Shown: positions 9,231 through 30,512 of the stretch, in pieces | Numbering within the stretch: position 1 is the first letter of the stretch | Layout of the letters: each line of letters opens with the position of its first letter | DNA from: a virus | Virus record (IMG/VR): IMGVR_UViG_3300045988_062257 | Reading direction: 5' to 3' (one strand) | Length of the DNA: 64,000 bases | Notes under the pieces: model-generated | What the model was told of the DNA's origin: nothing | The model's database searches: none | The model's input: only the letters and a program-made list of their open reading frames with translations | Program-made: the position numbers and the translations under genes

Positions 9231-9254
9231 TGAAAGCAAATGAGAAATTTGCAA

Positions 9255-9300
9255 AAATATAAATATTATGATATAATATTTATATAAGGTAAGGGAAGAA
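9255..9300 (+). promoter_or_regulatory. Promoter motif (TATGATATAATATTTATATAAGGTAAGGGAAG) upstream of the tRNA/Y-RNA block
   Basis: Instance of the repeated promoter motif. Confidence 0.4.
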
Positions 9301-9315
9301 CTTCTTCCCTTGTAT

Positions 9316-9402
9316 GCCCAAGTAGAAGAACTGGTATATTCAGCAGGCTCAAACCCTGCCGTCGAAAGACATCTGTGGGTTCGAATCCCACCTTGGGTAC
9401 CA
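9316..9402 (+). tRNA. tRNA-Leu (anticodon CAA), class II
   Basis: Acceptor GCCCAAG/CTTGGGT, anticodon arm GCAGG-CTCAAAC-CCTGC, long variable arm (GTC-gaaa-GAC), T-arm GTGGG-TTCGAAT-CCCAC, discriminator A, CCA. Confidence 0.75.
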
Positions 9403-9495
9403 ATGGCGCCGGCTATCGCGTAATACCGGATAATCAAAGAGGTATCGGTTGAAGATGGTTCGAAACATCCAAATCTTATGGCCTCCGCCATGCCA
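9403..9495 (+). ncRNA. Candidate Y-RNA-like ncRNA (long terminal helix with internal loop plus two internal hairpins, one T-loop-like)
   Basis: 5' ATGGCG-CC-GGCTAT pairs with 3' ATAAGGCC-TC-CGCCAT (about 12 bp with a 2x2 internal loop), enclosing hairpins ATACCGGATA...TATCGGT and GATG-GTTCGAAA-CATC. Ends GCCA. Lies 250 nt upstream of a Ro60/TROVE gene. Confidence 0.35.
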
Positions 9496-9498
9496 AAT

Positions 9499-9585
9499 GC
9501 GAACGTAGTCAAGTGGTTTAAGACCCCGGCCTGCAAAGCCGTGTGACCCGTAAGGGCGTGAGTTCGAATCTCACCGTTCGCTCCA
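9499..9585 (+). tRNA. tRNA-Cys-like (anticodon GCA, discriminator U) with an atypical long variable arm
   Basis: Acceptor GCGAACG/CGTTCGC, D-arm GTC-AAGTGGTTTAA-GAC, anticodon arm CCGGC-CTGCAAA-GCCGT, 15-nt variable region GTGACCCGTAAGGGC, T-arm GTGAG-TTCGAAT-CTCAC, U73, CCA. Long variable arms are not expected for Cys. Confidence 0.5.
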
Positions 9586-9710
9586 TAAGACCTTAACAGC
9601 AATAAAAAATGGACTGTAAATCCGTCGCTTATGCTACGCAGGTTCGAATCCTGCCCTCCCCACCACTATATGGCGGAGGTAGGGAAGTGGTTAAACCCAA
9701 CGGAACCAAA
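9586..9710 (+). ncRNA. Circularly permuted tRNA-like module (3' half followed by 5' half); candidate YrlA-type Y RNA
   Basis: Order is anticodon-like arm ATGGA-CTGTAAA-TCCGT, T-arm GCAGG-TTCGAAT-CCTGC, acceptor 3' strand CCTCCCC-A-CCA, 6-nt loop, acceptor 5' strand GCGGAGG, TA, D-arm GGG-AAGTGGTTAAA-CCC, then ACGGA (complementary to TCCGT). This is a tRNA body closed at the acceptor end and open at the anticodon end, immediately upstream of rsr. Confidence 0.35.
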
Positions 9711-9779
9711 AAGAAAAGGTCTAGAATCTAATCTCCCTTGTCCAAGGGAGTAACTAAAAATCAAAAGGAGATTGATACG

Positions 9780-11270
9780 ATGAATACTTTTATGAACGCT
9801 ATGAAGCAAGATACCAACTTTACCTTGACTGAGAATGGTGCTATTACCCATAAGTCCACTCTGAATGGTCTTATGGATTTGTTTGCGCTTGGCGGAGCAT
9901 ATCGCACTCGCTCTGACGCAGATTGCATCACTTTGTTTAAGGCGGCTTTTGACGAGGATGAAGCTCATGCTTTGAAGTGCCTATTCTACCTGCGCGATGT
10001 GCGCGGCGGCCAGGGCGAGCGTCGTTTCTTCCGCGTTGTAACTAATTGGCTTGCTTCTCACGAAACTGAGGCTATGCGTCGTAATCTCCAGTTTGTGCCC
10101 GAGTACGGTCGCTGGGATGACCTGTATATCTTCGTTGGCACTCCTCTGGAGAAGGACGCCTTCAATCTGATGCGCCATCAGCTGGCTTTGGATGTTTCTT
10201 GCAAGACTCCTTCTCTGCTTGCTAAGTGGCTGAAGTCTGAGAATACCAGCTCTAAGGAATCTCGCCATCTGGCGGTGATTACTCGCAATCATTTCGGCAT
10301 GACCGCGAAGCAGTATCGTAAGACCCTTTCCACTTTGCGTGAGCGTATCCGCATTGTCGAGCGCCTCATGTCTGAGAATCGTTGGGACGAGATTGAGTTC
10401 GATAAGATTCCTTCTCGCGCCGGTGTAATTTATCGCAATGCGTTTGCTCGCCGCGATATGATTAAGGCTAAGTACGAGGCTTTCGCTAAGGACACTGAGA
10501 CTAAGGTTAATGCCAGTGCTCTCTATCCTCACGATATTGCACATCGTGCCTTTGAAGCCAATCGTAAGGGATTGGGCGATCCTGATCGTCTGATGCTTCA
10601 GAAGTATTGGGAGAACCTTCCTAACTACTACGGCGATAATATCGAGAATGGCATTGCTGTTGTCGATGTTTCTGGCTCTATGACCGGTGTTCCTATGGAG
10701 GCTGCGGTTTCTATGGGTGCGTACATCGCAGATAAGGCGCACGGTCCTTTTGCCAACCACTTCATTACCTTCTCTGGTAATCCTGAGTTGGTGAAGTTCG
10801 AGGGGGCAGACATTACCGATAAGTTGTGCCGTTGCATTGGTGCGGATTGGGGTATGAACACTAATATCGAAGCTGTCTTCGATATGCTGCTCAGCACCGC
10901 AATGAAGCAAAGTGTAAAGCCTGAGGATATGCCTACTCGCGTTTATATCTTCTCTGATATGGAGTTTGACAAGTGCGTTATCAGTAACTCTACTGGTCGG
11001 GGTGGCTGGGGATATGGTATGCACAGCGATGCCATCCAGACTCTCTTTGAGGCTATGAAGGCTAAGTGGGCACGCTACGGTTACAAGATGCCTAGCTGCA
11101 TTTTCTGGAACCTGAACGCCCGCAATAACAACATTCCCGCAATCGGTGACGGCTTTAGCTATGTAAGTGGCTTTAGCCCTGTCATGATTCAGCAGATTCT
11201 CAGCGGCAAGGACGGACTCGATCTGGTTCTTGAGAAGCTGGATAGCGAGCGTTACGCTCAGATCCACTAA
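9780..11270 (+). CDS. rsr: Ro60/TROVE-domain protein with C-terminal vWA domain (Rsr-like)
   Basis: About 500 aa, N-terminal TROVE-like region and a MIDAS-containing vWA segment (VVDVSGSM ... S..T). RBS AAAAGGAG before ATG 9780 (ORF table starts at an upstream in-frame codon, 9738). The antisense ORF 9981-11267 is judged a shadow ORF. Confidence 0.55.
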   Translation: MNTFMNAMKQDTNFTLTENGAITHKSTLNGLMDLFALGGAYRTRSDADCITLFKAAFDEDEAHALKCLFYLRDVRGGQGERRFFRVVTNWLASHETEAMRRNLQFVPEYGRWDDLYIFVGTPLEKDAFNLMRHQLALDVSCKTPSLLAKWLKSENTSSKESRHLAVITRNHFGMTAKQYRKTLSTLRERIRIVERLMSENRWDEIEFDKIPSRAGVIYRNAFARRDMIKAKYEAFAKDTETKVNASALYPHDIAHRAFEANRKGLGDPDRLMLQKYWENLPNYYGDNIENGIAVVDVSGSMTGVPMEAAVSMGAYIADKAHGPFANHFITFSGNPELVKFEGADITDKLCRCIGADWGMNTNIEAVFDMLLSTAMKQSVKPEDMPTRVYIFSDMEFDKCVISNSTGRGGWGYGMHSDAIQTLFEAMKAKWARYGYKMPSCIFWNLNARNNNIPAIGDGFSYVSGFSPVMIQQILSGKDGLDLVLEKLDSERYAQIH

Positions 11271-11278
11271 ACCCTTTC

Positions 11279-11326
11279 AAACGGGGAAATGGCAAGAAAA
11301 TTGCCATTTCCCCCGTCTTTTCTATT
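11279..11326 (+). terminator. Rho-independent terminator (AACGGGGAAATGGCAA-gaaaa-TTGCCATTTCCCCCGT plus T-run)
   Basis: 16-bp stem followed by CTTTTCT. Confidence 0.65.
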
Positions 11327-11390
11327 TATTGAAAAATAATTTAATTTATGATATAATAAATATATAAGGTAAGGAAAGGAAGTTACATAG

Positions 11391-12278
11391 ATGAATCCAT
11401 TTGAAATGCCATTCCCAAGTTTGTTTACATCTTCATTTGAACCACCAGCGCGATCTGCTTCTGATTATTCTCTATATCGAGAAGACTTTGGTAGTATTTA
11501 CAGTTTACTGAATACTATCAATAACCGTGAAAACAATAGCTTCATGCGTAACGAAGATTCGTCTCAGGAACGTGGAAATGAAGAGTGGAGTGGCACTTCT
11601 TCTTATGAAGAAGCTCAATCTCTCTTGATTCATGGCTATGAAGATCCGGTTAAAAGTATCAAGAGCAGTTTAGCTAAAAATAAGAAACTGACAAGTAAAA
11701 TCTACAATTCAATTCCTAAGCCCATAGTCCAAAATAGAGTGGTAGGATTTGTTCCAAATGTACCCAATGCTCTTAAAGGACTGCCGGAATCTATGATTAC
11801 ACTGGAAAAACTCCATAAGAAGAGAAAGACCATCTCTATTATCTATGCTACGGGCGGTAGCTGTGGCGTAGAAAGTGATGTTCTGGCATCCGCGGGCTCG
11901 GCGCTTGTATCCGCCATCAACCTCATTGAGTTGTCCGGTGTGCAAACTGAATTGTCGGTTGGTTTTATGCCTACGAAAGAAACTAAGCAGATTATTTTCC
12001 CGACTGTGAAGATTAAAGGCTATGGCGAACGCTTTAATTTGCAGAAAATCTGCTTCCCGATGATTCACCCTGCAATGTTTAGACGAATTGGCTTTAAGTA
12101 CCTTGAAACTTGTCCTGGTATGGTAGAAAATTTTTCTCATGGTTATGGCCGTCCGCCTGAGCTTGAAGTTTTGAAGACTCTTATCAAGGATAAAAATACC
12201 TATGTGATTAACCGTGCGTGGATTACTGAACATGAAAATGATATTGAAGAAATTCTTAAATATATGGAGGTCTGCTGA
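11391..12278 (+). CDS. Hypothetical protein (295 aa)
   Basis: Promoter motif plus RBS AAGGAAAGGAAG upstream. No recognisable domain by eye. Confidence 0.45.
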   Translation: MNPFEMPFPSLFTSSFEPPARSASDYSLYREDFGSIYSLLNTINNRENNSFMRNEDSSQERGNEEWSGTSSYEEAQSLLIHGYEDPVKSIKSSLAKNKKLTSKIYNSIPKPIVQNRVVGFVPNVPNALKGLPESMITLEKLHKKRKTISIIYATGGSCGVESDVLASAGSALVSAINLIELSGVQTELSVGFMPTKETKQIIFPTVKIKGYGERFNLQKICFPMIHPAMFRRIGFKYLETCPGMVENFSHGYGRPPELEVLKTLIKDKNTYVINRAWITEHENDIEEILKYMEVC

Positions 12279-12279
12279 T

Positions 12280-13239
12280 ATGAATAGAGATAAGATGCTC
12301 GAAGCAATGATGAAGGCGGTGACTGATGCGGTCGTCGACGTGAATGTGGAAGAAATTCTGGCAAAAGTGTATCCTCAGATTGATGAGAAAATTCACGAGA
12401 CTTATGGTTTCCTGCCGGAGGTTCATGAAGTGCGGACGCCGACTACGACTCATAAGATCTGCGGCACTACGCATGAGAAGTTTGACGAAGTTCTCAATAT
12501 CGTCAATCTGGATATCCCCGTTTATCTGACCGGCAAAGCGGGCACCGGCAAGAATGTCATTTGTCAGCAGGTCGCGGAATCTCTGGGTCTGGATTTTTAC
12601 TTCACAAACGCTGTTACGCAGGAGTACAAGCTGACTGGCTTCATTGATGCCAACGGCAATTATCAGGAAACCCAGTTTTATAAAGCTTTTACGAAGGGTG
12701 GTCTGTTCTTCTTGGACGAGATGGACGCGTCTATCCCTGAGACCCTGATTATTTTGAACGCGGCCATCGCGAATAGATACTTCGACTTCCCCAACGGCAA
12801 AGTTAGTGCGAACCCTAACTTTAGAGTCATCGCTGCTGGTAATACGGTTGGTACTGGTGCAGATAATAACTACACTGGTCGCTATTGCTTGGATAGAGCA
12901 AGTCTTGACCGTTTTGCTATGGTGAACATCGACTACTCTGAAAAGATTGAGATGGCTATGGCAGATAACAACAAGAGTCTAGTATCTTTCTGCCATCGTT
13001 TCAGAGAGATTACCGATAAGGCTGGCATTGAGTGCTTGTTTTCTTATCGTACTATTGATAGAATTGCAAAACTCGAAACGGTAATCAACAATCTATCCGA
13101 GGTTCTGTCTATCTCACTACTTAAGGGCATGGACGAAGATACTTTGTCTATTCTTAAGAACGAGCTGTCTGAAGCTAAGGATATGACAAATAACAAGTAT
13201 GCGAAAGCTATTATCAATGGTAATAGCTGGGATTTTTAA
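12280..13239 (+). CDS. MoxR-like AAA+ ATPase
   Basis: Walker A LTGKAGTGKN and Walker B LFFLDEMD. Size and motif spacing match MoxR/RavA-type ATPases. ATG 12280 with RBS TATGGAGG (ORF table start 12214 is in frame). Confidence 0.55.
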   Translation: MNRDKMLEAMMKAVTDAVVDVNVEEILAKVYPQIDEKIHETYGFLPEVHEVRTPTTTHKICGTTHEKFDEVLNIVNLDIPVYLTGKAGTGKNVICQQVAESLGLDFYFTNAVTQEYKLTGFIDANGNYQETQFYKAFTKGGLFFLDEMDASIPETLIILNAAIANRYFDFPNGKVSANPNFRVIAAGNTVGTGADNNYTGRYCLDRASLDRFAMVNIDYSEKIEMAMADNNKSLVSFCHRFREITDKAGIECLFSYRTIDRIAKLETVINNLSEVLSISLLKGMDEDTLSILKNELSEAKDMTNNKYAKAIINGNSWDF

Positions 13240-14867: not shown

Positions 14868-15170
14868 ATGGGAAAAATTACTCGTCATAGCAAAGAGCGC
14901 ATTGTTCAGAGAACTGAGGGATGTGAGAGTTTCGCAGAAGCTAAGAAGTTGGCTAAACAAGCTAAGCGATCTGGCGCGACTATCAATCAGTTCCAGAAGT
15001 TCCCTAAGTTCTTCTCGTATCTTCAGAACAAAAGAGATCAGACCAATACCTGCTCTATTAGAGTGTACCGAGGTAACATTTATATCTGGCGTGGCAAAGA
15101 TACACTAATTACCGCACACCCTATCCCCGAAAGATATATTAAAGAAATGGAGGCTATTGGTGATGACTGA
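14868..15170 (+). CDS. Hypothetical basic protein
   Basis: Start 2 nt after the previous stop. Confidence 0.4.
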   Translation: MGKITRHSKERIVQRTEGCESFAEAKKLAKQAKRSGATINQFQKFPKFFSYLQNKRDQTNTCSIRVYRGNIYIWRGKDTLITAHPIPERYIKEMEAIGDD

Positions 15171-15960
15171 TGTTATGAGTAGAGTTTATGGCCATCTCGA
15201 TGAAAGTTTACAGAGATTCGACGAATCCAGAATCGTCGGTATCTTCCTGCAAGGTTCTCAGAACTATGGTCTTGAAACTCCTAAGAGTGATGTTGATACA
15301 AAGCTGATTGTTACTCCTACTTTTGATGAAGTAGTTCTCAACAAGAAACCTATCAGCACCACTCATGTAAGAGCAAATAACGAGCATACTGACTTAAAGG
15401 ATATTCGTTTAATGCTCGCCACCTTTCGCAAGCAAAACCTTAACTTCATCGAAATTCTGTTTACCCCTTATGCTTGGGTAAACCCTCTCTTTGAAAGTGA
15501 ATGGAGCCGCCTGACTACGGCGCGCGAAAAGATTGCCCATTATTCTCCATATAGCGCAGTTAAAACTATGAAGGGTATCGCTATGGAGAAGTATCATGCC
15601 ATGGAACACGAGTATCCTAGCAAGTTGGAAGTATTGGCTGAATATGGATACGACCCAAAACAGCTTCATCATCTCCTGCGAGTCCAGGAATACATCCATA
15701 GATACATCAGCGGTGAATCTTATGAAGCGTGCTTGCATCCTAAGCATCCAGAGTTTCTCGTGGCTGTTAAGCAGGGATACTTTAACCTTGAACAGGCTCG
15801 CACTTCCGCAGATGCAGCGATTGCTGATGTAATTAAAACTGCGGATGCTTTCTGCGAAAAGGTTGGTAAAACTTTTGATACCGCAGTTGATGAACTGCTG
15901 GATGACGTACAGTACAATATCGTAAAAAGTGCATTGAAAGGAGAGATTCTAAATGATTAA
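15157..15960 (+). CDS. Nucleotidyltransferase (Pol-beta superfamily)
   Basis: GS-x9-DxD-like motif LQGSQNYGLETPKSDVDTK. Confidence 0.45.
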   Translation: MVMTDVMSRVYGHLDESLQRFDESRIVGIFLQGSQNYGLETPKSDVDTKLIVTPTFDEVVLNKKPISTTHVRANNEHTDLKDIRLMLATFRKQNLNFIEILFTPYAWVNPLFESEWSRLTTAREKIAHYSPYSAVKTMKGIAMEKYHAMEHEYPSKLEVLAEYGYDPKQLHHLLRVQEYIHRYISGESYEACLHPKHPEFLVAVKQGYFNLEQARTSADAAIADVIKTADAFCEKVGKTFDTAVDELLDDVQYNIVKSALKGEILND

Positions 15961-16747
15961 GAACTGGCTTGTTACAGGAGACACTCATGGTCAAGTCCTT
16001 GAAAGACTTAGTCATATTGGATATTCTCCTGATGAAACTGCATTGATTATTCTTGGCGATATGGGGCTTAATTTCTATCTGAATAAGACCGATCGCAAGA
16101 ATAAAAAGAATGTTAATAATACAGGCTTCCGCATTTACGCGGTTCGCGGAAACCATGAAGAGCGTCCAGAAAACCTTTCCATGGAGCAAATGTATGACGA
16201 AGACGTCGATGGCGGCGTCTATTATGAGCCAGAATTTCCGAATATCAGATACCTTTTTGATGGAGAGAGCTACAACATTCATGACTACTCTGTCCTTGTT
16301 ATCGGCGGGGCATATTCCGTAGATAAGTGGTATCGACTTGGAGGCCGTCCAGAAGATACAAATAGCTGGACCGGTTGGTTCAAGGACGAACAGCTAACCA
16401 AAAAGGAAATGGATGAAATTGGCGCATGGGTTGAAGGTAAGCGTTATGATTTTGTCCTAACCCATACTTGTCCCATTTCTTGGGAGCCAAGAGATTTGTT
16501 TCTCTCTGGTCTTGACCAATCAAAAGTAGATAAGAGTATGGAACTTTGGCTTGAGGATATCAAAAGCAAAGTTGATTGGGAAGTATGGCTCTGCGGCCAC
16601 TACCATGACGATCGGTTAATCCGACCTGGCGCAGAAATGTATTTCCATGACATTGAATCTCTTGATACAATTTGGGAGCGCTGGCAAGACCCTGAGAACA
16701 TCGACTGGTGGTTGAAGAAGGATCCAAACTACTATATGGGTAGATAA
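15953..16747 (+). CDS. Calcineurin-like metallophosphoesterase
   Basis: Motifs GDTHG, GDMG, GNHE, and HYHDD-like C-terminal His. Confidence 0.55.
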   Translation: MIKNWLVTGDTHGQVLERLSHIGYSPDETALIILGDMGLNFYLNKTDRKNKKNVNNTGFRIYAVRGNHEERPENLSMEQMYDEDVDGGVYYEPEFPNIRYLFDGESYNIHDYSVLVIGGAYSVDKWYRLGGRPEDTNSWTGWFKDEQLTKKEMDEIGAWVEGKRYDFVLTHTCPISWEPRDLFLSGLDQSKVDKSMELWLEDIKSKVDWEVWLCGHYHDDRLIRPGAEMYFHDIESLDTIWERWQDPENIDWWLKKDPNYYMGR

Positions 16748-16795
16748 AAAAATAAAGGGTCGAAGTATTAAATACTTCGACCCTTTTTAATTAAA
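16748..16795. terminator. Bidirectional Rho-independent terminator (AAAGGGTCGAAGTATT-taaa-TACTTCGACCCTTT)
   Basis: Perfect palindrome flanked by A-run on one side and T-run on the other. Separates converging + and - strand genes. Confidence 0.65.
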
Positions 16796-17048
16796 AATCA
16801 TGCCATTCAATTTTCTGCGGACTTCCAGTTCCACCGATCTTTTGATAGCCATTTGCTGCGGTATATTGCAAGATGGCATCTTCTACAAAGTAGATTTTGC
16901 CTTCTTCGCCTACCGCAGGAAGCTCAGAACGCTGTGTTACTTCAATGCTTCCACCATTTTTAATCTGTTCCTTAACCCATTCTTTGAGTTTTGTATCATA
17001 ATGAGACAAAAGGTTAAGGTCAATAAGATTTTCTAATGCAACTGCCAT
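16791..17048 (-). CDS. Hypothetical protein (minus strand)
   Basis: RBS AAGGAGTG upstream on the minus strand. Converges on the bidirectional terminator. Confidence 0.45.
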   Translation of the reverse strand: MAVALENLIDLNLLSHYDTKLKEWVKEQIKNGGSIEVTQRSELPAVGEEGKIYFVEDAILQYTAANGYQKIGGTGSPQKIEWHDF

Positions 17049-17061
17049 TAGGAATCACTCC

Positions 17062-17331
17062 TTAACCAAATAATTTATCAATGTCTGCAATGTCGGCTAA
17101 GCTGCCTTCAACGACAACTGTCCCACCGCCTCCGCCGCCACTTGACTTTTGTTTAATCCATTGACCCTGGTTGTTCAATCTATAAATGCTAGAAGTTGCG
17201 ACAACCTCGCAAGTGCTGCCAGGGGTAAAGTGGGTAGGAAGGGTGGCAATTTCGTCTTCGGTATCAACTAGTAGACGAACTAGATAGGGAGTGATTTTCT
17301 CCCCACTCATCATCTGAGAATACATAGACAA
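17062..17331 (-). CDS. Hypothetical Gly-rich protein (minus strand)
   Basis: Co-oriented with 16791-17048. Contains a GGGGGG run. Confidence 0.4.
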   Translation of the reverse strand: MSMYSQMMSGEKITPYLVRLLVDTEDEIATLPTHFTPGSTCEVVATSSIYRLNNQGQWIKQKSSGGGGGGTVVVEGSLADIADIDKLFG

Positions 17332-17419
17332 TCTGCCCCTTTCATTATTTTCTCTATTGTTATCTAAAAAATGATAATGAGTGTATATCAGCTTTTGGCC
17401 AAAATAAATACCTATTTGA

Positions 17420-17471
17420 AAAATATCATAAAATATATTATAATATATATAGAAAGTTAAGGAAGAAAGAA
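17420..17471 (+). promoter_or_regulatory. Promoter motif plus leader (TATATTATAATATATATAGAAAGTTAAGGAAG)
   Basis: Instance of the repeated motif before the gene at 17472. Confidence 0.4.
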
Positions 17472-17876
17472 GTGATAACCATTCGTATCTGGCACCAAAA
17501 ACTTATTCCCTATCTTGATCGTCAGCGTCTCTTGGGTCAGCATCGAGAATGCGCGGCTCTAAGAGGAAAAGGTTGGGGCAAGAAGCACGCAACTGTAGAC
17601 TACGCTTTTACACATGACCCTGCTCTACTTGTCGCTTATCATTATCTGATTATGGACGAGATGGAGAAGCGTGGTTACCATCCAGATAAGATTTGGAAGA
17701 ATCCTAACTGGCGAGGAAGTACATTAGGTGAGGGTACATGGATTTCTGATTCTAAGTATGAAGAGATTTATGAATCTGCTAAGCAGGGTAATATGATTTA
17801 CCCTGAACACGACGATGCTTATTTGCAGGAGTGTATCAATATTCTGCATGAAAAAGGTGTCGACATTACGATGTAA
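17472..17876 (+). CDS. Pyrimidine-dimer DNA glycosylase-like (T4 endonuclease V family?)
   Basis: N-terminal pattern IRIWHQKLIPYLDRQRLLGQHRECAAL resembles the endoV N-terminus (L..L.DQHL..EYRE). Non-ATG start in the ORF table. Confidence 0.35.
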   Translation: MITIRIWHQKLIPYLDRQRLLGQHRECAALRGKGWGKKHATVDYAFTHDPALLVAYHYLIMDEMEKRGYHPDKIWKNPNWRGSTLGEGTWISDSKYEEIYESAKQGNMIYPEHDDAYLQECINILHEKGVDITM

Positions 17877-17896
17877 CAAGAGAGGAGATAACTATA

Positions 17897-18066
17897 TGAT
17901 GCCCTATGTTTGTGATGGAACTATCGTAAGAGTGAGAGACGGTCGCACTGGTAAAGTCATCTGCGTTGATAGAAACACCAAGATTGCAGTAGTCTATACT
18001 GGTAAGGCATCTATCTCCACAAAGATTGAAAATCTTGAGGTCATTTCCTACAAGGAGGTTAAGTAA
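17897..18066 (+). CDS. Hypothetical small protein
   Basis: RBS AGAGGAG before ATG 17897. Listed within ORF 17815-18066. Confidence 0.35.
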
Positions 18067-18123
18067 ATGCCCGGAAGAGTAAGAGTTCATCGCCCTTCTC
18101 CCGAAAGAGAGGGAGAATATAAG

Positions 18124-18360
18124 ATGCGTATTCTTAGCATCTTGAATGAGTCCGAGGAAGCCATGACGATTGATGAAATCAAAAGCCAAGATATGATTCT
18201 TCAGCCGTTGACTTCTCAGAAAATGGCAAGACTTATCGGCAATCTGATTGAAATGGGACTTGTGCGGAAGGGCAAGTCTAAGAGCCTTGGACGCATGGTT
18301 TATAAGGCTGTAGCAGTCATGATTAGTCAAGGCTACGATGTGAATGAAGAGGAGGAATAA
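18124..18360 (+). CDS. Winged-helix-like small protein
   Basis: RBS GAGAGGGAG before ATG 18124 (ORF table starts upstream at 18067). C-terminal wHTH-like pattern. Confidence 0.35.
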   Translation: MRILSILNESEEAMTIDEIKSQDMILQPLTSQKMARLIGNLIEMGLVRKGKSKSLGRMVYKAVAVMISQGYDVNEEEE

Positions 18361-18363
18361 GAT

Positions 18364-19632
18364 ATGGCATATTTTGGTTTGGTAACTAAGTTGCAGAACT
18401 GCCGTAAGGACGAGAACTCTGATCGTCTGTATCTGGCAGATTGCTTCAATGAGGGCGTTATCGTCGGCCCCGATATGAAGACCGGTGATCTGGTTCTGTA
18501 CCTGCCGACCGATGGTCAGGTAGATCATTGGTTTGGCGATAAGTTTACCTTGTTCCGTAAGAATGAGGATGGTACTGAGCAGGGCGGTTATCTGGAGAAT
18601 AACGGTCATGTGCGGGCTATCAAGCTTCGTGGCAACGAGAGTTCTGGCATCGTCATCTCTCTTGAGCGTGTCTATGAGACTTTCGGCAATCAGCATTGGA
18701 AGAACGGAGATAAGATAAATACTATCAATGGTAAGGAGTTCTGCCGTAAGTATATCCCTAAGCGTAAGACTCCGAGCACCACTCCTAAGACTTCCTACAA
18801 GGGTCGTAAGGCAGAGGGTATTACCTATCCTGAGTTTGCAATGCATACTGACACCGAGCAGCTTGCATACAATCTGGATAAGTTCCGTCCCGGCGATGAG
18901 CTGAATATGACTCTTAAGATGCATGGCACTTCTCAGCGTTCCATGAACACCTTTGCTGAGCTACCCAATGGCTTCTTCCGTCGTCTATTCCATATGAAGA
19001 AGCGTCTGAAGCAGGCTTATGTTCTCGGTACGCGCCGTTGTGTTGTAACTGAGAACTCTCAGGGCTACTACGGCAATGATCTATTCCGTATGTCTCACCA
19101 TGAGGCATTGAAACCCCATCTTGATCCTGGTATGGAGGTCTTTTACGAGGTAGTAGGGTACTACGGTCCCTCTGAGAATGATACCATCATGCCTATCGGC
19201 GATAACTCCAAGCTAAAAGATAAGGCTTTCCAAAAGCTGTTCGGTAAAAAGTCTATCTTCTCCTACGGCTGCAAGCCCGGTGAGTCCCATATGTGGATTT
19301 ATCGCATCACTTCCGAGAATGGTCAGCGTGAGTGGACTCCTGACGAGATTACTGCTTGGTGCGAGAAGCATGGCTTTAATCGTGTCCCGGTGATTGAGAA
19401 CTTCAAGTTCACTACTGCCGAGGACCTGCAGGACCGCATTAACAAGTATTTCGAGGACTTGGTCGATCCTATCGGTAAAACTCATGTTAAAGAGGGCGTT
19501 GTAGTTCGTATCGTCAACCGCCGCGCCTTTACTGCTTTCAAGTCTAAGACTTACGAGTTCAAGGTGCTTGAGGGTATTATCAAAGAGACTGAGACTGCTC
19601 CAGATATGGAGGAGGCACAGGACGAAGTATGA
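18364..19632 (+). CDS. ATP-dependent RNA ligase, Rnl2-like
   Basis: Nucleotidyltransferase motif I KMHGTS (Rnl2 KIHGTN-like), motif IV EGVVVR, motif V FKSK. Confidence 0.5.
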   Translation: MAYFGLVTKLQNCRKDENSDRLYLADCFNEGVIVGPDMKTGDLVLYLPTDGQVDHWFGDKFTLFRKNEDGTEQGGYLENNGHVRAIKLRGNESSGIVISLERVYETFGNQHWKNGDKINTINGKEFCRKYIPKRKTPSTTPKTSYKGRKAEGITYPEFAMHTDTEQLAYNLDKFRPGDELNMTLKMHGTSQRSMNTFAELPNGFFRRLFHMKKRLKQAYVLGTRRCVVTENSQGYYGNDLFRMSHHEALKPHLDPGMEVFYEVVGYYGPSENDTIMPIGDNSKLKDKAFQKLFGKKSIFSYGCKPGESHMWIYRITSENGQREWTPDEITAWCEKHGFNRVPVIENFKFTTAEDLQDRINKYFEDLVDPIGKTHVKEGVVVRIVNRRAFTAFKSKTYEFKVLEGIIKETETAPDMEEAQDEV

Positions 19633-19792
19633 GAATTATCTTCTACGGTCTGTGGCTGACTACTATTGTTGTTGGTTCTATTCTAGGAACAATAGTTCCT
19701 CCTTCAGCCGTCTATCTTACCGGTTTTACGACAGGAACTCTCTCTTTAATACTCTTACACTTTGCCTCTCAATTTAAGGATTTAGGAGTATA
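19630..19792 (+). CDS. Small membrane protein (about 54 aa)
   Basis: ATG overlaps the previous stop. Two hydrophobic helices. Ends at TAG just before the next gene. Coordinates approximate. Confidence 0.3.
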
Positions 19793-19796
19793 GATT

Positions 19797-20153
19797 ATGC
19801 TTTATTGGGGTATTATCCTTTTTATTTGTATCATCGTTTTTGTTGTTTTATTTAAGGCACTCAATAATAGCTGTTGGTACTGGGGAATGGCAGCATTTGT
19901 TATTGCATTGGCAATGCTTTTAAGTACCTGCAAGTATAGAAGCTTTTTAGCTTCTTTTGAAATTCAACGCACAATTATTACGCAAATGTCACAGTCATAC
20001 CATTTTAACGACAATACACTTATCTATATAGCGGATATGATTGACGCTAATCAAGAGTTAGCGGAAATTCAAGGTAGTAAGAAAGCTTGGGGCGGATGGA
20101 GTATGTACCCCGATAGTGTCATGGATGTCATTCCCATCGGATTAGAAAACTAA
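19797..20153 (+). CDS. Membrane protein
   Basis: Two N-terminal TM helices. Confidence 0.4.
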   Translation: MLYWGIILFICIIVFVVLFKALNNSCWYWGMAAFVIALAMLLSTCKYRSFLASFEIQRTIITQMSQSYHFNDNTLIYIADMIDANQELAEIQGSKKAWGGWSMYPDSVMDVIPIGLEN

Positions 20154-20156
20154 ATG

Positions 20157-20198
20157 CAAGAGACTCTTACCTAGCCAGTAAGAGTCTCTTTATTTTTA
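20157..20198 (+). terminator. Rho-independent terminator (CAAGAGACTCTTAC-ctagcca-GTAAGAGTCTCTT plus T-run)
   Basis: 13-bp stem and TTATTTTTAT. Followed by the promoter motif. Confidence 0.65.
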
Positions 20199-20251
20199 TA
20201 ATAATATATTATATAATATATATAAAGAATGAGGAAAGGAGTTTTCTATAT

Positions 20252-20776
20252 ATGCAGAAAATTCTAATTGTAATTGATATGCAGAATGATTTCGTAACAG
20301 GGCCTCTCGGCTCTAAAGCCGCGCAAGTAGCTGCGAAGAATATTGCTGCGCATATCAATGAATATGACACGGTAATTTTCACCCGCGATACCCATGGCCC
20401 AGATTATCTGGATACATTGGAAGGAAAGTTCCTACCGATTCCGCATTGTATCAAGGATACTGAAGGATGGGAGATTATCCCTGAACTCGTTAATGGAGTT
20501 TCCAAGGTGAAGAATCTCTACGTCGTCGATAAGGATACCTTTGGCACTTTCATTTGGGGAAGTATGTCTGTAAATATGTCAGTAGATGAAGATACTACCA
20601 TTGAAATTTGCGGCGTATGCACCGACATTTGTGTGGTATCCAATGCTCTTATCATGCGGGCTTTTCGTCCTAATCAGAAGATCAAGTGTCACAAAGACTG
20701 GTGCGCTGGTACGAGTGTTGCAGCACATGAAGCAGCTCTTAAAGTTATGGAATCTTGCCAGATTGAAGTTATTTAA
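20252..20776 (+). CDS. Isochorismatase-family hydrolase (nicotinamidase PncA-like)
   Basis: N-terminal ILIVIDMQNDF and catalytic Cys region CGVCTDICV. Confidence 0.55.
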   Translation: MQKILIVIDMQNDFVTGPLGSKAAQVAAKNIAAHINEYDTVIFTRDTHGPDYLDTLEGKFLPIPHCIKDTEGWEIIPELVNGVSKVKNLYVVDKDTFGTFIWGSMSVNMSVDEDTTIEICGVCTDICVVSNALIMRAFRPNQKIKCHKDWCAGTSVAAHEAALKVMESCQIEVI

Positions 20777-20787
20777 GGAGGCTTAAT

Positions 20788-21621
20788 ATGCTATTTGTTC
20801 GCTCTAGAATGGGTTTTGAGGATAAAACCTGGATGCCAGTTAGTCAAGATCGATTTCCAGATGGAACGCTGCACATGACTGCTCCTAAAGATTCCTTATT
20901 TAAGAACTCTAATGTCGATATCTACTGGAAGTATAACAATGATGCAGAATTGTTCTCGCTAATTTGCTTGCGGAAACACTATGCCGATTGTAAAAATGTC
21001 ACACTTTATATGCCCTATTGTCCGCACGCCCGCATGGATAGAGTTAAGGGCACAACCGATGTATTCACTCTCAAGAGTTTTGCAGATGTTATCAACTCTC
21101 TTGATTTCACCAAGGTGGTTATCTATGATGCCCATAGTAATGTAACACCTGCGCTAATTGATAGAGTGGAAAATCGTCCGAATACTATGTTCGTTGAACG
21201 CACTTTACTCGATATCGGAGACGATAATCTTGTCATGTATTATCCCGACGAAGGGGCTATGAAGAGATATTCTGAGAATTGCCAGCGCCCTTATAGCTTT
21301 GGCATGAAGCGCAGAAATTGGGAGACTGGTAAAATTCTCGGTGTAGATATTATCAATAGAGAGATTGTAAAAGACAAGAATATCCTCATTGTTGATGATA
21401 TTTGTTCTAAGGGCGGTACATTCTACCATTCAGCGCAGGCTCTGAAAGATGCGGGCGCCGCAGATATTTATCTCTTCATCACTCATTGCGAAGATTCTAT
21501 TTTCAAAGGCAGCTTACTCGAAAGTGGCTTGATTAAGCACATCTACACCACTGATTCGTTGGGCCATGACATTCTCTTTAACAAACAGATTACGGTTTAC
21601 AACCTGCGAGAAATCATTTAA
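20788..21621 (+). CDS. PRPP-synthetase-like phosphoribosyl pyrophosphokinase (Prs or ADPR-PP synthetase-like)
   Basis: PRPP-binding signature ILIVDDICSKGGT. About 277 aa. Sits next to a NAMPT-family gene. Confidence 0.5.
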   Translation: MLFVRSRMGFEDKTWMPVSQDRFPDGTLHMTAPKDSLFKNSNVDIYWKYNNDAELFSLICLRKHYADCKNVTLYMPYCPHARMDRVKGTTDVFTLKSFADVINSLDFTKVVIYDAHSNVTPALIDRVENRPNTMFVERTLLDIGDDNLVMYYPDEGAMKRYSENCQRPYSFGMKRRNWETGKILGVDIINREIVKDKNILIVDDICSKGGTFYHSAQALKDAGAADIYLFITHCEDSIFKGSLLESGLIKHIYTTDSLGHDILFNKQITVYNLREII

Positions 21622-21630
21622 GGAAAGGAA

Positions 21631-23361
21631 TTGTATACAATGTTTAATCCTCTTTTAATGATTGACTTTTATAAGAGTACCCATCATGAACAGTACCCCG
21701 TTGGACTAACTAAGATGGTTAGCTACTACACTCCTCGTATGAGCCGCCTTAAGGATGTAGACAAGGTAACTTTGTTTGGTCTACAGGCATTTATTAAGGA
21801 GTATCTCATTGAGGGTTTTAACGATAACTTCTTTAATCGTCCAGAAGAGGAAGTTGTCGCAGAGTACGAGCGAGTTCTCAACGCTACTCTCGGTCCAGGT
21901 GCATTTCAGTCTGAGAAAATTAGAGATTTGCATCGACTGGGCTATCTTCCTCTAGAAATCTCTGCTGTCCCTGAAGGCACCAGAACCGCGATCGGCGTCC
22001 CGCAGATCGAGATTACCAACACTCACCCCAACTTCGTTTGGTTGGTGAATACTATTGAGACCCTTCTGTCTGCCACCATGTGGCATACGCAGGTATCCGC
22101 GGAAGTTGGCTATCGGTATCGCCAGATTGTGCAGAAATACCGTGACATGAGTTGCGACGACAATGTTCCTGTAGCTCGACTGCTTGGTGATTTCTCTATG
22201 CGCGGTCAGCAATCCGCGGAATCCGCAATTAAGAGTTCTGCTGGCTGGTGTCTATCTTTCCTGAACACCGCTACTGTACCTGCAATTATGTGGCTTGAGA
22301 AGAACTATAATTGCGACTGCACTAAGGAACCTGTTGCTTACGGCGCAATCTCTACCGAGCATAGTGTTATGTGCTCTAACTACGCGATTGATGGTAATGA
22401 AATTACCCACATCCGCAGACTTCTGACAGAGATTTATCCTCACCACAATTTTTCTATGGTGTCTGATAGTTACGACTATTGGAATCTCGTAGAGAAAATT
22501 CTCCCGCACTTGAAAAATGAAATCATGGCACATGATGGGTGTCTTTCTATTCGTGGCGATAGTGGCGACCCAGTTGAGATTATCGCGGGTAAGGAAATCA
22601 TCTATCTCAATGAGCAGGAGTGGGAGAACCTAAAAGACGATCCAAGTGAGTTCATTGCTGAGTTCTTTGAACGAGACTTAGAGAAAGACACTCAGCAGAT
22701 TTTCTCTTACAATGGAGAGTATGCTCTTGCTGACATTACAGTCGAATGGACTAATGAGCGCGGTGCTTGGACTGATTGCAAATATTGGTACATTGAGGGT
22801 TATAATGTCAAACTGATTGAAAATTATGAGCTTACTTCTGAGGATAAGGGAACTGTCTGGTGTTTGTGGGATATTTTCGGTGGAACTATCAATAGCAAGG
22901 GCTATAAGGTCCTTGATCCTCACATTAAAGCTATCTATGGTGATAGCATTACTCCTCAGCGGTGCACTCGCATTTATCAGCGCCTTGTGAATAATGGATT
23001 TGCCATTAACAATGTTTCTCTTGGCGTTGGCTCTTTCTCCTTTATGTGTCTTGAAGAAGATGGCAGCTTCAATCCTTACACTCGTGATACCTTTGGTATC
23101 GCTGTTAAGGCAACTTACGCGGAAAATGCAAATGGTAAGCCTATTATGATTTACAAGCAGCCCAAGGCTCTCAGTTGGAAGAAGTCTCAGAAAGGCTGCT
23201 GTCGGATAGCTCTTGATGGTCAGAGCTATGAAGATGAACTGACTTGGGCAGATCATCTTGGTGAAGACAATCTACTCCAGCCTGTGTTCCGTGATGGTAG
23301 TATGATTAAGGAGGACAGTCTGCACGATATTCGCGCACGGCTATATAAGGAGGGCTTTTAA
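21631..23361 (+). CDS. Nicotinamide phosphoribosyltransferase family protein (NadV/NAMPT-like)
   Basis: 576 aa. NAMPT/NAPRT-family architecture with conserved GDS and DSYD-like motifs. Confidence 0.55.
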   Translation: MYTMFNPLLMIDFYKSTHHEQYPVGLTKMVSYYTPRMSRLKDVDKVTLFGLQAFIKEYLIEGFNDNFFNRPEEEVVAEYERVLNATLGPGAFQSEKIRDLHRLGYLPLEISAVPEGTRTAIGVPQIEITNTHPNFVWLVNTIETLLSATMWHTQVSAEVGYRYRQIVQKYRDMSCDDNVPVARLLGDFSMRGQQSAESAIKSSAGWCLSFLNTATVPAIMWLEKNYNCDCTKEPVAYGAISTEHSVMCSNYAIDGNEITHIRRLLTEIYPHHNFSMVSDSYDYWNLVEKILPHLKNEIMAHDGCLSIRGDSGDPVEIIAGKEIIYLNEQEWENLKDDPSEFIAEFFERDLEKDTQQIFSYNGEYALADITVEWTNERGAWTDCKYWYIEGYNVKLIENYELTSEDKGTVWCLWDIFGGTINSKGYKVLDPHIKAIYGDSITPQRCTRIYQRLVNNGFAINNVSLGVGSFSFMCLEEDGSFNPYTRDTFGIAVKATYAENANGKPIMIYKQPKALSWKKSQKGCCRIALDGQSYEDELTWADHLGEDNLLQPVFRDGSMIKEDSLHDIRARLYKEGF

Positions 23362-23786
23362 TGAACGATCCATTCCTTGACATCAATAGAGTAGTTGATA
23401 GACTCTATAATGAATATAAGCGGTATGGTGATATTATTATCGCCTTCGACTTTGATTACACGGTTCATAATTTCCGTGACGAAGATTATACTTACGAGTG
23501 TGTGAGTGAAATGTTGCGGAAATGGCAACCCTATGCTAAGCTCGTGGTATTTAGTGCTTCTCAAGAAGAGCGATATCCCTATATTGCAGATTATCTCAAT
23601 CAGAATAACATTCCTTTTGATGCAATCAATGAGGATGTTCTGACTGAAAAACGTAAGCCAACGAGAAAACTGTATTATAATATCTTGCTTGATGATAGAG
23701 CAGGACTTGGTAGCGCTTACACGGCATTAGATATGCTATATAGTAAACTAGAAGCAGAAGGAGAACTGAAAACATGGAGAATGTAA
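23361..23786 (+). CDS. HAD-like hydrolase (possible nucleotidase)
   Basis: DxDxT motif FDFDYTV near the N-terminus. Confidence 0.35.
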   Translation: MNDPFLDINRVVDRLYNEYKRYGDIIIAFDFDYTVHNFRDEDYTYECVSEMLRKWQPYAKLVVFSASQEERYPYIADYLNQNNIPFDAINEDVLTEKRKPTRKLYYNILLDDRAGLGSAYTALDMLYSKLEAEGELKTWRM

Positions 23787-24514
23787 TTACCAATATCACC
23801 AATTGGATTAAGGATTACTTCGTAAATAATGGTCCAGATTGCAAAGCTATCATTGGTATTTCTGGTGGCAAAGATAGCACTGTAACTGCGGCTCTGCTTG
23901 TTAAAGCACTCGGAAAGAATAGGGTTATTGGTGTAAAAATGCCACAGGGCAATCAGCATGACATTAATGTTGCCAATAAAGTAATTGACTATCTCGGTAT
24001 ACGGAGTTACGAAATCAATATTGGCGATGTCTGTGAATCCTTATATCATGCTATTGATGAGGGGTATGATTTTGATAGTACAGTTAAAAACAATCCCCAA
24101 GTTACTTCTAACTCTCCTGCCCGCGTCCGCATGACAGTGCTTTATGCTATTGCTGCGCTTGAACATGGTAGAGTAGCAAACACTTGTAATAGGAGCGAGG
24201 ATTTTATTGGCTATTCCACTAAATTCGGAGACGCTGCTGGCGATTTCTCCGTGCTGTCTGAATATACAGTTTCAGAAGTGCGGCAGATTGGTAAAGCACT
24301 TGGTATCCCTAATGAGTTTATCTTTAAAGCGCCAGAAGACGGTCTTAGTGGCAAGACAGATGAAGATAATCTTGGATTTACCTATGGTGAACTCGATCAC
24401 TTCCTACTGCGAGGACATTATCCATCTTATGATGTTTATAAAAACATTGAAGAGCGGCACAAGCGCAATCTTCATAAGATAAATCCAATGCCTTCTTGTC
24501 CTAGATATTACTAA
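23774..24514 (+). CDS. nadE: NH3-dependent NAD+ synthetase
   Basis: PP-loop GISGGKDST plus NadE-like length and motif arrangement. Confidence 0.6.
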   Translation: MENVITNITNWIKDYFVNNGPDCKAIIGISGGKDSTVTAALLVKALGKNRVIGVKMPQGNQHDINVANKVIDYLGIRSYEINIGDVCESLYHAIDEGYDFDSTVKNNPQVTSNSPARVRMTVLYAIAALEHGRVANTCNRSEDFIGYSTKFGDAAGDFSVLSEYTVSEVRQIGKALGIPNEFIFKAPEDGLSGKTDEDNLGFTYGELDHFLLRGHYPSYDVYKNIEERHKRNLHKINPMPSCPRYY

Positions 24515-24534
24515 ACTCGCAATTACACTGTTAT

Positions 24535-24566
24535 AAAGAGAGCCTTACGGCTCTCTTTATTTTTTA
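24535..24566 (+). terminator. Rho-independent terminator (AAGAGAGCC-ttac-GGCTCTCTT plus T-run)
   Basis: Stem-loop plus TATTTTTTAT, then the promoter motif. Confidence 0.6.
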
Positions 24567-24611
24567 TAAAATATATTATATAATATATGTATAAGAGAGG
24601 GGAGAAAGAGT

Positions 24612-24857: not shown

Positions 24858-25006
24858 AGGACGGATATAATGGATTTATTTTCACTACTTGAGAATCTCA
24901 AGCTTGATCTTGAATGGGCAGAAGCTAATGAGTGGGAAGCTCCAATTTGTCTTGCTGACGATTTGCGAGAAGCTATTGAAATCATTGAAAAGGAGATGGA
25001 AGAATA

Positions 25007-26749: not shown

Positions 26750-26767
26750 TATAAGGAGTTTATTATT

Positions 26768-27031: not shown

Positions 27032-27037
27032 AAGAAG

Positions 27038-27073: not shown

Positions 27074-27111
27074 TATTTTATTATATAATATATGTATAAG
27101 AAAGGAGAAGA

Positions 27112-28430: not shown

Positions 28431-28435
28431 ATAAA

Positions 28436-30506: not shown

Positions 30507-30512
30507 CTTATA

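Follow-up and report, generated by a model that had tools for sequence, protein, structure and literature searches.

What kind of RNA lies directly upstream of the Ro-like gene in IMG/VR virus record IMGVR_UViG_3300045988_062257? An initial annotation of the 64,000-nucleotide (nt) stretch that we analysed (the window) placed a transfer RNA (tRNA)-like module with circularly permuted parts at positions 9586-9710, next to a gene read as rsr, and took it for the tRNA-like domain of a YrlA-type Y RNA or, alternatively, for a permuted tRNA gene matured by ligation. RNA surveillance by Ro60 and its Y RNAs is a conserved system that is still poorly understood. To our knowledge, only TROVE-type proteins and GNCGAA-type Y RNAs have been described in bacteria and phages so far. 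We find that 9587-9723 encodes a real, conserved, circularly permuted tRNA-Tyr-like RNA, and that it belongs to a conserved, structured and strand-specific RNA family that is genetically linked to a Ro60-fold protein. The element is probably the Y-RNA analogue of a second, commoner branch of phage Ro60, whose proteins carry the domains DUF2828 and DUF7788.

A conserved, circularly permuted tRNA-Tyr-like RNA

Every part of the permuted module that had been proposed was present at 9609-9704, in the order given: anticodon-arm-like hairpin, T arm, acceptor 3' strand with ACCA, cap loop, acceptor 5' strand, D arm and finally ACGGA, which again pairs with UCCGU (Table 1). Some details of the initial annotation changed. 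The cap loop has 7 nt and not 6, the acceptor helix has a C:C mismatch at 2:71, and the RNA is longer than the span first assigned to it, as a terminal helix encloses the module. An A-rich linker separates the ACAGCAA motif, which follows the 5' strand of this helix, from the anticodon-arm-like hairpin.

Joining 9673-9699 to 9609-9665 reverses the permutation and gives an 84-nt sequence that ARAGORN calls as tRNA-Tyr(GTA). Its cloverleaf is of the normal type II kind and its variable arm is long; A73, the G1:C72 pair and CCA are all present. In its native order, the element was called as a tRNA by neither ARAGORN nor Rfam.

Covariation was assessed in 16 distinct sequences from six lineages. 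The long-range helix UCCGU/ACGGA, which is equivalent to an anticodon stem, kept all five pairs in 16/16 sequences, with double-sided changes at four of the five positions; such changes were also found at 3/5 positions of the T stem and at 6/7 positions of the acceptor helix. RNAalifold, run on seven full-length members with no structure supplied, predicted the terminal helix, the long-range anticodon-stem helix, the variable-arm hairpin, the T arm, the acceptor helix and the D arm, with compensatory (both-side) changes in 15 of its 29 consensus pairs. The consensus chose the long-range helix over the local anticodon hairpin. Covariance folding, which had been suggested as a check, thus recovers the same architecture and bears out a tRNA that is closed at its acceptor end and open at its anticodon end, the topology described for the tRNA-like domain of YrlA (Chen et al. 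2014, PMC4201824; Wang et al. 2018, bioRxiv 10.1101/312249). The terminal helix covaries among relatives (AAGACUU/AAGUCUU, AGGAUGC/GCAUCCU and GUAGUU/AACUAC). N-CCA is kept in all six divergent lineages despite its position in a 'loop', and the cap loops differ wholly among them.

The exact D arm was found again in 19 IMG/VR stretches, and the arrangement of T loop followed by D arm in 37 metagenome stretches. In all, conservation of the element extends to more than 60 contigs from phages and metagenomes. By blastn, elements of about 78% identity lie in unannotated gaps of Cronobacter phages LPCS28 and S13, Klebsiella phage KP13-16 and Rhizobium phage RHph_Y65; these Cronobacter, Klebsiella and Rhizobium phage elements lack the 5' strand of the local anticodon hairpin. 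The complete hairpin is restricted to the window lineage and lineages L113 and L117, being absent from L001-L003, and un-permuting yields a canonical tRNA for the window lineage, L113 and L117 only. The D arm GGGAAGUGGUUAAACCC (9682-9698) is identical at 17/17 positions in permuted elements of Cronobacter, Klebsiella, Rhizobium and gut phages, and the same D arm occurs in two genuine phage tRNA-Tyr genes (L006 and L011). The window's own tRNA-Tyr has a D arm unlike this invariant one. A scan of genome contigs for the T-loop and D-arm pattern returned one contig, from a metagenome-assembled genome; the exact module is therefore phage-borne and is not a bacterial YrlA consensus.

An ACAGCAA platform defines an RNA family beside DUF2828 genes

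Searches by nhmmer with the tRNA-like core retrieved close relatives only, so the flanks were inspected, which led to the discovery of the platform. Distant DUF2828 loci lack the tRNA-Tyr-like core, but their upstream regions still begin with a helix and ACAGCAA and have the same end. We defined the family by a terminal helix, then 0-2 nt, then ACAGCAA, on the strand of a nearby DUF2828 gene; the window element, whose platform reads AAGACCUUA-ACAGCAA ... AAGGUCUAG, falls within this definition. The platform commonly has NAGRC and four further bases as its 5' strand, which abuts ACAGCAA, and a 3' strand ending in GYCUN-G. The enclosed module has 30-115 nt and is sometimes a plain hairpin, often includes a T arm and is sometimes fully tRNA-like, in permuted or native order.

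The association with helices is specific to both motif and strand. Across 80 IMG/VR DUF2828 loci, a helix of at least 7 bp adjoined 74 of 99 ACAGCAA copies on the gene strand. The other strand had 49 copies, six of them with such a helix, and permuted control 7-mers (eight in all) had only 0-8 helix-adjacent copies each. A motif-agnostic helix scan, noisy as it was (about 500 helices per strand), returned ACAGCAA as the sole recurrent follower, with 31 cases on the gene strand and 0 on the other. Starting instead from the pattern, we searched IMG/VR for two 14-base versions of the 5' platform. Within the DNA examined, a DUF2828 homologue was present in 18/61 helix-positive loci, always on the same strand, compared to 2/176 helix-negative loci (odds ratio 36, Fisher p 3.7e-10).

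Among cultured phages, platform RNAs were found in all eleven DUF2828 loci examined, Vibrio nt-1 being ambiguous. The others are mycobacteriophage Lolly9, the Felix O1-like phage wV8, Listeria LMTA-148, Bacillus PK-3, Campylobacter CPX, a Staphylococcus phage, Enterococcus EFGrNG, Sinorhizobium phiM12, Klebsiella KP13-16 and LPCS28. The RNAs stand beside the DUF2828 gene in one to five tandem copies, and the hosts of these phages are Firmicutes, Actinobacteria, Proteobacteria and Campylobacter. Four TROVE loci (Rhizobium Y65, CcrColossus, crAss001 and phiLo) lack the platform and bear other motifs instead (CGAAUG, ACUUCG and UUACUUCAA).

Rhizobium phage Y65 (L002) has a true TROVE gene, and in its element the D arm and T loop are identical to those of the window element but the platform is of the CGAAUG kind (GCGAAUG). 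This is a module swap: one effector module is borne on two platforms, each of which matches the protein type beside it.

No Rfam 15 family covers the ACAGCAA platform RNAs, which apparently form a large phage RNA family undescribed before. Small hypothetical coding sequences are annotated over platform RNAs in wV8 (L105, 8329-8586, minus strand) and in the Staphylococcus phage (L151, 5224-5571); these are probably mis-called open reading frames (ORFs).

The protein encoded downstream resembles Ro60 by predicted fold

The product of the downstream gene (9780-11270), which we presume to be the partner of the RNA, matches Pfam DUF2828, DUF7788 and, weakly, VWA_2, and belongs to PHROG 850 ('RNA-binding protein'). 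It has no match to Pfam TROVE (PF05731) or vWA_Ro60 (PF25045), while mycobacteriophage McGee Ro, a control of the cluster C1 type, gave 9e-50 and 4e-54, respectively, with the same two families. In Lolly9, wV8 and Listeria LMTA-148, the proteins called 'Ro-like' are likewise of the DUF2828/DUF7788 kind by Pfam.

An AlphaFold2 (AF2) model of the product, with a predicted local distance difference test (pLDDT) score of 76, shows helical repeats followed by a von Willebrand factor A (vWA) domain with a DVSGSM MIDAS motif (for metal-ion-dependent adhesion site). In a Foldseek search of the PDB, the nine best matches were all Ro60/TROVE structures, aligned over the full length with E-values of 2e-6 to 9e-5; the best was Thermus phage phiLo Ro60 (9kop; template-modelling (TM) score 0.56-0.59), and 1yvr and 2nvo were also among the nine. 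Alignment by hhalign with phage TROVE proteins gave 93% probability (E 3e-7) over the vWA domain and the preceding helix, with DVSGSM aligned to the D[VI]SGSM of the TROVE proteins. By fold and profile comparison, then, the product appears to be a distant Ro60 homologue. The name rsr thus holds as far as the predicted fold is concerned; by sequence, the gene encodes DUF2828 and DUF7788 rather than Pfam TROVE.

The DUF2828 type is also the commoner one, with 704 phage records compared to 89 for a TROVE query. Within the part of the literature covered (on DUF2828, Ro-like proteins and YrlA), we found no link of DUF2828 proteins to an RNA partner. DUF2828 has been annotated on genes of wheat and other plants (PMC6937682).

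Comparison with YrlA and other known RNAs

The window RNA shares much with YrlA. Both consist of two modules, a terminal helix in which the 5' end pairs with the 3' end and a tRNA-like domain, and in both the latter runs in the order anticodon-stem strand, variable arm, T arm, closed acceptor stem-loop, D arm, anticodon-stem strand. Both adjoin the gene of a Ro60-fold protein on the same strand, are often multicopy and occur with tRNAs, and the 7-bp acceptor stem is that of Mycobacterium smegmatis YrlA. A YrlA is recognized by its location within about 4 kb of a TROVE-domain Ro60 orthologue and on the same strand (RF02553; Chen et al. 2014), by binding to Ro60/Rsr in vivo and by pseudouridine-55 and dihydrouridine modifications made by TruB and DusA; it is described as having neither an anticodon loop nor a free CCA end.

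Here the two diverge. The window RNA has no GNCGAAN0-1G or CGAA (neither occurs in 9587-9625) and has ACAGCAA after the 5' strand of the terminal helix instead, its partner is a DUF2828/DUF7788 protein and not Pfam TROVE, and it encodes N-CCA and retains a complete anticodon arm with GUA. There was also no match to RF02553 at E ≤ 10 in 9250-9850. Membership of the YrlA family, as first proposed, was therefore not borne out, since the YrlA motif and the RF02553 match are missing and the neighbouring gene is not rsr by sequence. The RF02553 consensus has a cggCGAAUGC...GucGccg platform and the order T, acceptor, D. Its gathering score is 69 bits, and other DUF2828-linked tRNA-like members (34-48 bits) and accepted TROVE-phage Y RNAs (30-42 bits) all fall below it. 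The window element likely misses RF02553 because of its long variable arm, extra hairpin and CCA-bearing acceptor. Around the element, Rfam reported only tRNAs and chance-level matches, whether at gathering thresholds or at E ≤ 10: transfer-messenger RNA (tmRNA, 12-15 bits, over the T arm and acceptor), a plastid untranslated region and a CRISPR repeat, the last of which merely reflects pairing in the leader.

Phage Ro60 proteins with Y-like RNAs have been published for the TROVE type (PMC4201824, PMC12135203), and Chen et al. (2014) used the cluster C1 mycobacteriophage kind of Ro, a TROVE protein (PMC4201824). Thermus phage phiLo, with Ro60 and the RNAs Yrl1 and Yrl2 (PMC12135203), resembles the window in having a Ro60-fold protein with Y-like RNAs alongside on the same strand, and its Ro60 is the best structural match of the window protein. 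CcrColossus has tandem Y-like RNAs with permuted T, acceptor and D modules. Unlike the window, however, phiLo, CcrColossus and crAss001 have proteins that are TROVE by sequence and RNAs with CGAA, ACUUCG or UUACUUCAA-type motifs, with no ACAGCAA platform. The YrlA permuted-tRNA topology and TROVE phage Ro60 with Y-like RNAs were thus already known, and what is apparently new is the DUF2828-linked ACAGCAA RNAs.

Among other tRNA mimics, tmRNA (including its two-piece permuted form) shares with the element a T arm, acceptor and CCA and, in some lineages, a permuted order. The window RNA differs in having a D arm but neither a tag reading frame nor pseudoknots, in scoring far below the tmRNA threshold and in its partner context.

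A probable Y-RNA analogue for a second phage Ro60 branch

We consider it probable that the element is a Y-RNA analogue serving the DUF2828/DUF7788 branch of phage Ro60. It would be a stable non-coding RNA of two modules, a platform and a tRNA mimic, made together with tRNA-Leu and tRNA-Cys from one promoter. The terminal helix and the single-stranded ACAGCAA would form the binding site for the DUF2828/DUF7788 protein of the same operon, and the tRNA-Tyr-derived mimic, tethered in this way to the Ro-like protein, would present an L-shaped surface to tRNA-recognising enzymes, by analogy with YrlA. Every lineage retains a 7-bp acceptor helix and N-CCA, from which we infer cleavage by RNase P and a CCA end. 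RNase P would cut between 9672 and 9673 and the 3' side would be trimmed to CCA, as has been shown for M. smegmatis YrlA (PMC4201824); the product would be a two-piece RNA held by the platform and acceptor helices. Protein binding, processing by RNase P and the function of the window RNA are putative assignments. The RNA lies in a tRNA array beside an RNA-repair island, and a role in surveillance or repair of tRNA or other structured RNA during infection is likely.

Several observations weigh against this reading. In the window sequence, the local anticodon hairpin (-30.8 kcal/mol) and the long-range helix (-28.8 to -32.6 kcal/mol) are isoenergetic, so thermodynamics does not settle the fold in the window lineage. 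The RNA lacks the GNCGAA motif and the RF02553 match of known Y RNAs, as noted above. With the window protein, phmmer against the PDB and BLASTP against a phage TROVE protein each found nothing, and the homology to Ro60 rests on the pLDDT-76 model (TM 0.36-0.59) and on a profile match confined to the vWA region. In the pattern-first scan, 43 of the 61 helix-positive matches had no DUF2828 gene in the DNA examined, and strict criteria find a platform RNA within 3 kb in only 48/80 metagenomic DUF2828 loci. Finally, the natural recombinants L005, L030, L118, L142 and L132 have lost the 5' half of the element while the Ro-like gene is intact, which means that the RNA is dispensable in some phages. 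In these recombinants (L005 4285-4441, the same in L030, L118 and L142; and L132), the platform strand, ACAGCAA, anticodon arm and variable arm are replaced. The replacement joins at the T loop, and the donor tRNA has the anticodon loop UUUCAAA (anticodon UCA, which would read UGA).

The Y-RNA reading points to a second Ro60-like branch that has the same display of tRNA-like modules and appears to have an RNA signature of its own, a terminal helix with ACAGCAA. Phage genomes with this branch outnumber those with the TROVE type about eightfold, and the branch spans Felix O1-like, Listeria A511/P100-like, Campylobacter, Staphylococcus and Enterococcus phages and cluster L mycobacteriophages, among them model and applied phages. 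DUF2828, a domain of unknown function, gains a concrete and testable candidate RNA ligand. Platform RNAs explain unannotated gaps, and probably also spurious small ORFs, in many phage genomes, and the tRNA-Tyr-like module that is found on two platforms amounts to a natural module-swap experiment on the specificity of Ro for RNA.

Alternative explanations

A bolder version of the Y-RNA reading, which we regard as unlikely, is that the window-lineage RNA is a switchable, complete tRNA-Tyr mimic tethered to the Ro-like ring. Cleavage by RNase P and trimming would expose a genuine A73-CCA end, and the local AUGGA/UCCGU hairpin, by replacing the long-range helix, would display an anticodon arm with GUA. 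Such an RNA could be recognized, and perhaps charged, by tyrosyl-tRNA synthetase (TyrRS); alternatively, it could be a bait or sensor for host anticodon nucleases directed at tRNA-Tyr, one that brings the Ro-like protein and the phage's repair enzymes to the damage. The opposite permutation seen at 1670-1790, with an open acceptor and a closed platform, would arrive at the same chimera by a second way.

Could the element instead act in cis, in the leader of the mRNA for the Ro-like protein (for example as an operator for autoregulation or as a sensor of tRNA), and not as a stable RNA in trans? The element lies 57 nt upstream of the start codon in the same transcription unit, and a conserved hairpin (9733-9750) stands between RNA and gene. 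AAUCUCC (9730-9736) can alternatively pair with the Shine-Dalgarno sequence GGAGAUU (9767-9773), which suggests translational control. The sequence TTGTCCAA occurs within 110 nt upstream of the start in 45/81 DUF2828 loci, with 50 occurrences in 560 kb overall, and the leader hairpin may be a translational operator or a processing site. Family members are, however, found on the downstream side of the gene in three phages (Lolly9, wV8 and the Staphylococcus phage), two members in the window are 6-9 kb upstream among tRNAs, and several tandem copies are found per locus. This pattern fits excised stable RNAs, like tRNAs, and leaves a purely cis-acting leader improbable, although the roles of leader and stable RNA are not mutually exclusive.

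It is similarly doubtful that the tRNA mimic works independently of the Ro-like protein, for example as a decoy or sensor for host anticodon nucleases or as a processing or punctuation signal of tRNA arrays, with some other factor reading the ACAGCAA helix. Three things fit such independence: the GUAAA of the Tyr anticodon loop persists even where relatives have no hairpin, the surroundings are a tRNA array and an RNA-repair island, and 43 helix-positive loci had no DUF2828 gene in the DNA examined. Against this, the association with DUF2828 is strong and confined to the same strand, the platform is absent from TROVE-type tRNA-rich loci, which bear a motif of their own, and the module swap in Rhizobium phage Y65 ties platform type to protein type.

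The second possibility raised by the initial annotation, a permuted tRNA-Tyr gene whose transcript is circularised or re-ligated by the phage ligase and kinase and whose acceptor ends are then freed by cleavage, yielding a functional tRNA-Tyr, is very unlikely. Permuted tRNA genes of Cyanidioschyzon merolae and other algae are the sole functional copy and mature through a circular intermediate, by means of a splicing endonuclease and ligase acting at a bulge-helix-bulge. As in those genes, the 3' half here is upstream of the 5' half, the acceptor linker is short and un-permuting gives a cloverleaf, in this case a good tRNA-Tyr(GTA). The RNA ligase and kinase said to be encoded in the window are indeed there (Table 1), together with a Thg1-like enzyme, although ligase and kinase fit a context of RNA repair rather than tRNA assembly. 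In contrast to the algal genes, a normal tRNA-Tyr(GTA) is present at 3909-3994, and no bulge-helix-bulge junction was seen on inspecting the window sequence and its folds. The relatives contradict this explanation too. L001, L002 and L003 lack the 5' anticodon-stem strand, so no full tRNA can be made from them; U33 is lost in L008 (CAGUAAA) and L114 (UAGUAAA); four lineages (L001, L003, L113 and L117) have an extra base between the T and acceptor stems; and pair 2:71 of the acceptor helix, a C:C mismatch in the window, is C:C or C:U throughout the window lineage. Moreover, the ends form a conserved helix that resembles a protein platform, and this helix and ACAGCAA are common to RNAs whose module is not a tRNA.

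A neutral recombination scar in the tRNA array, with no function of its own (fused 3' and 5' halves of tandem tRNA-Tyr genes, or a remnant of an attachment (att) site), is very unlikely: tandem tRNA genes with 3-7-nt spacers are common in the window, T-loop recombinants exist (L005 and L132), the 3' half resembles an attP-side tRNA fragment of mycobacteriophage Dori and a tandem tRNA-Tyr duplication is the likely evolutionary origin, but the element is a conserved unit in phages of unrelated hosts, with an invariant D arm and with compensatory changes in each of its helices, among them the terminal one by which the halves are joined, so that purifying selection on the helices has already been seen, and it has a strand-specific, statistical link to one protein family and no integrase nearby. 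The attP remnant in particular was rejected because the Dori match is the 3' half of a host-type tRNA-Tyr beside an integrase.

Transcription unit, further members and surroundings

Table 1. Positions and properties of the RNA element, its parts and the other features of the window
Feature	Position	Strand	Remarks
Y-like RNA element	9587-9723	+	137 nt; first base 1 nt past the encoded CCA of tRNA-Cys (9585)
Terminal (platform) helix, 5' strand AAGACCUU	9587-9594	+	AGACCUU at 9588-9594 pairs with 9716-9722
ACAGCAA motif	9596-9602	+	Invariant family signature; putative binding site of DUF2828-type Ro-like protein
Anticodon-arm-like hairpin AUGGA-CUGUAAA-UCCGU (GUA = Tyr)	9609-9625	+	Complete; competitor of the long-range helix
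UCCGU strand of anticodon-stem-equivalent helix	9621-9625	+	Closes the tRNA-like module; partner ACGGA at 9700-9704
Long variable arm	9626-9637	+	Type II tRNA-like hairpin; from lineage comparison and RNAalifold
T arm GCAGG-UUCGAAU-CCUGC	9638-9654	+	From covariation and RNAalifold
Acceptor 3' strand CCUCCCC	9655-9661	+	Followed by discriminator A and CCA (ACCA, 9662-9665)
Cap loop CUAUAUG	9666-9672	+	7 nt; closes the acceptor helix; RNase P cut predicted at 9672/9673 (precedent M. smegmatis YrlA)
Acceptor 5' strand GCGGAGG	9673-9679	+	Followed by UA (U8 A9) at 9680-9681
D arm GGG-AAGUGGUUAAA-CCC	9682-9698	+	Sequence identity across phages
ACGGA, 3' strand of anticodon-stem-equivalent helix	9700-9704	+	Preceded by a single A; followed by linker to the terminal-helix 3' strand
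Terminal (platform) helix, 3' strand AAGGUCU	9716-9722	+	Pairs with 9588-9594; in RNAalifold consensus
DUF2828+DUF7788 protein	9780-11270	+	496 amino acids; start 57 nt downstream of the RNA; presumed RNA partner
Predicted sigma-70-type promoter TTGCAA-17-TATAAT	9249-9277	+	With TG extension; consensus match only
tRNA-Cys(GCA)	9499-9585	+	Encoded CCA; Rfam and ARAGORN; adjoins the element
Leader hairpin CUCCCUU-GUCC-AAGGGAG	9733-9750	+	Just upstream of the ribosome-binding site; stem covaries
Intrinsic terminator	11283-11313	+	13-bp stem and U tract; closes the unit
Third platform member	610-752	+	AAGACCUAU-ACAGCAA ... GUGGGUCUU; 120-nt inner module not tRNA-like
Opposite-permutation member	1670-1790	+	tRNA body; open acceptor end (GCCA); anticodon loop replaced by closed platform
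Second permuted member	3128-3238	+	Platform AAGACGCAU/AUGCGUCUU; ACAGCAA, T arm, 7-bp acceptor with GCCA, D arm
tRNA-Tyr(GTA), normal	3909-3994		ARAGORN
RNA ligase (PF09414)	18364-19632		Family search
Thg1-like enzyme	27112-27948		Family search
Kinase (P-loop, AAA_33)	28945-29712		Family search

From promoter to terminator, the unit runs tRNA-Leu, spacer, tRNA-Cys, Y-like RNA and Ro-like gene. The end of tRNA-Cys lies 1 nt from the element, which implies co-transcription and processing of the tRNA type. More widely, tRNAs were found within 3 kb in 68/80 DUF2828 loci, and all 238 of them were on the strand of the gene.

The spacer between tRNA-Leu and tRNA-Cys (9403-9498) was considered as a YrlB-like RNA and rejected; its fold is no better than those of shuffled sequences (z = -0.6) and it is not conserved in L035. 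It contains a T-arm-like sequence, GAUGGUUCGAAACAUC (9454-9469), and CCUCCGCCAU (9482-9491), which is perfectly complementary to AUGGCGGAGG (9670-9679), and is probably a decayed tRNA copy. Among the tRNA calls, ARAGORN also reported a tRNA with the four-base anticodon 'taaa' and a 'tRNA-Cys(aca)' (4166-4239 and 363-432); these may be frameshift-suppressor-like or degenerate.

Three other family members are encoded in the window. The minimum-energy fold of 3128-3238 is exactly the permuted structure (z = -4.8), and 3128-3241 aligns end to end with Rfam YrlA at 29 bits (E 0.001-0.007), which is below threshold. The fold of 610-752 is weak (z = -1.7) and not clearly above shuffles. The member at 1670-1790 scores 48.6 bits as an Rfam tRNA with a 55-nt insert and was not called by ARAGORN; the insert consists of the hairpin GGUCUA-GUAAA-UAGACC, then ACG and then ACAGCAA (1730-1736).

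Directly after the Ro-like gene and behind a promoter of their own (11329-11357), genes for a DUF7192 protein and a MoxR-like AAA_5 ATPase occupy 11391-13239. MoxR ATPases typically partner vWA proteins, and the Ro-like vWA protein, the DUF7192 protein and the MoxR-like ATPase may form a functional trio. Further on, 15157-34921 is an RNA-repair and counter-defence island. It holds an RlaP nucleotidyltransferase, three metallophosphoesterases, the RNA ligase, the Thg1-like enzyme, the AAA_33 kinase, a band-7 protein, PhoH-PIN and genes for the salvage and synthesis of nicotinamide adenine dinucleotide (NAD), namely those of a phosphoribosyl pyrophosphate (PRPP) synthetase-like protein, NAMPT/NAPRTase and NadE. 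This neighbourhood of RNA-repair genes echoes the arrangement of the rsr-yrlBA-rtcBA operon, and in Listeria LMTA-148 the DUF2828 gene sits between a tRNA array and RtcB/RNA-ligase genes.

In crAss001 (L148), five tandem unannotated RNAs that share the UUACUUCAA motif lie downstream of the TROVE gene (5470-6080). One of them, at 5648-5791, is a tRNA body interrupted by about 70 nt that bear UUACUUCAA, a TROVE-type counterpart of the window member at 1670-1790.

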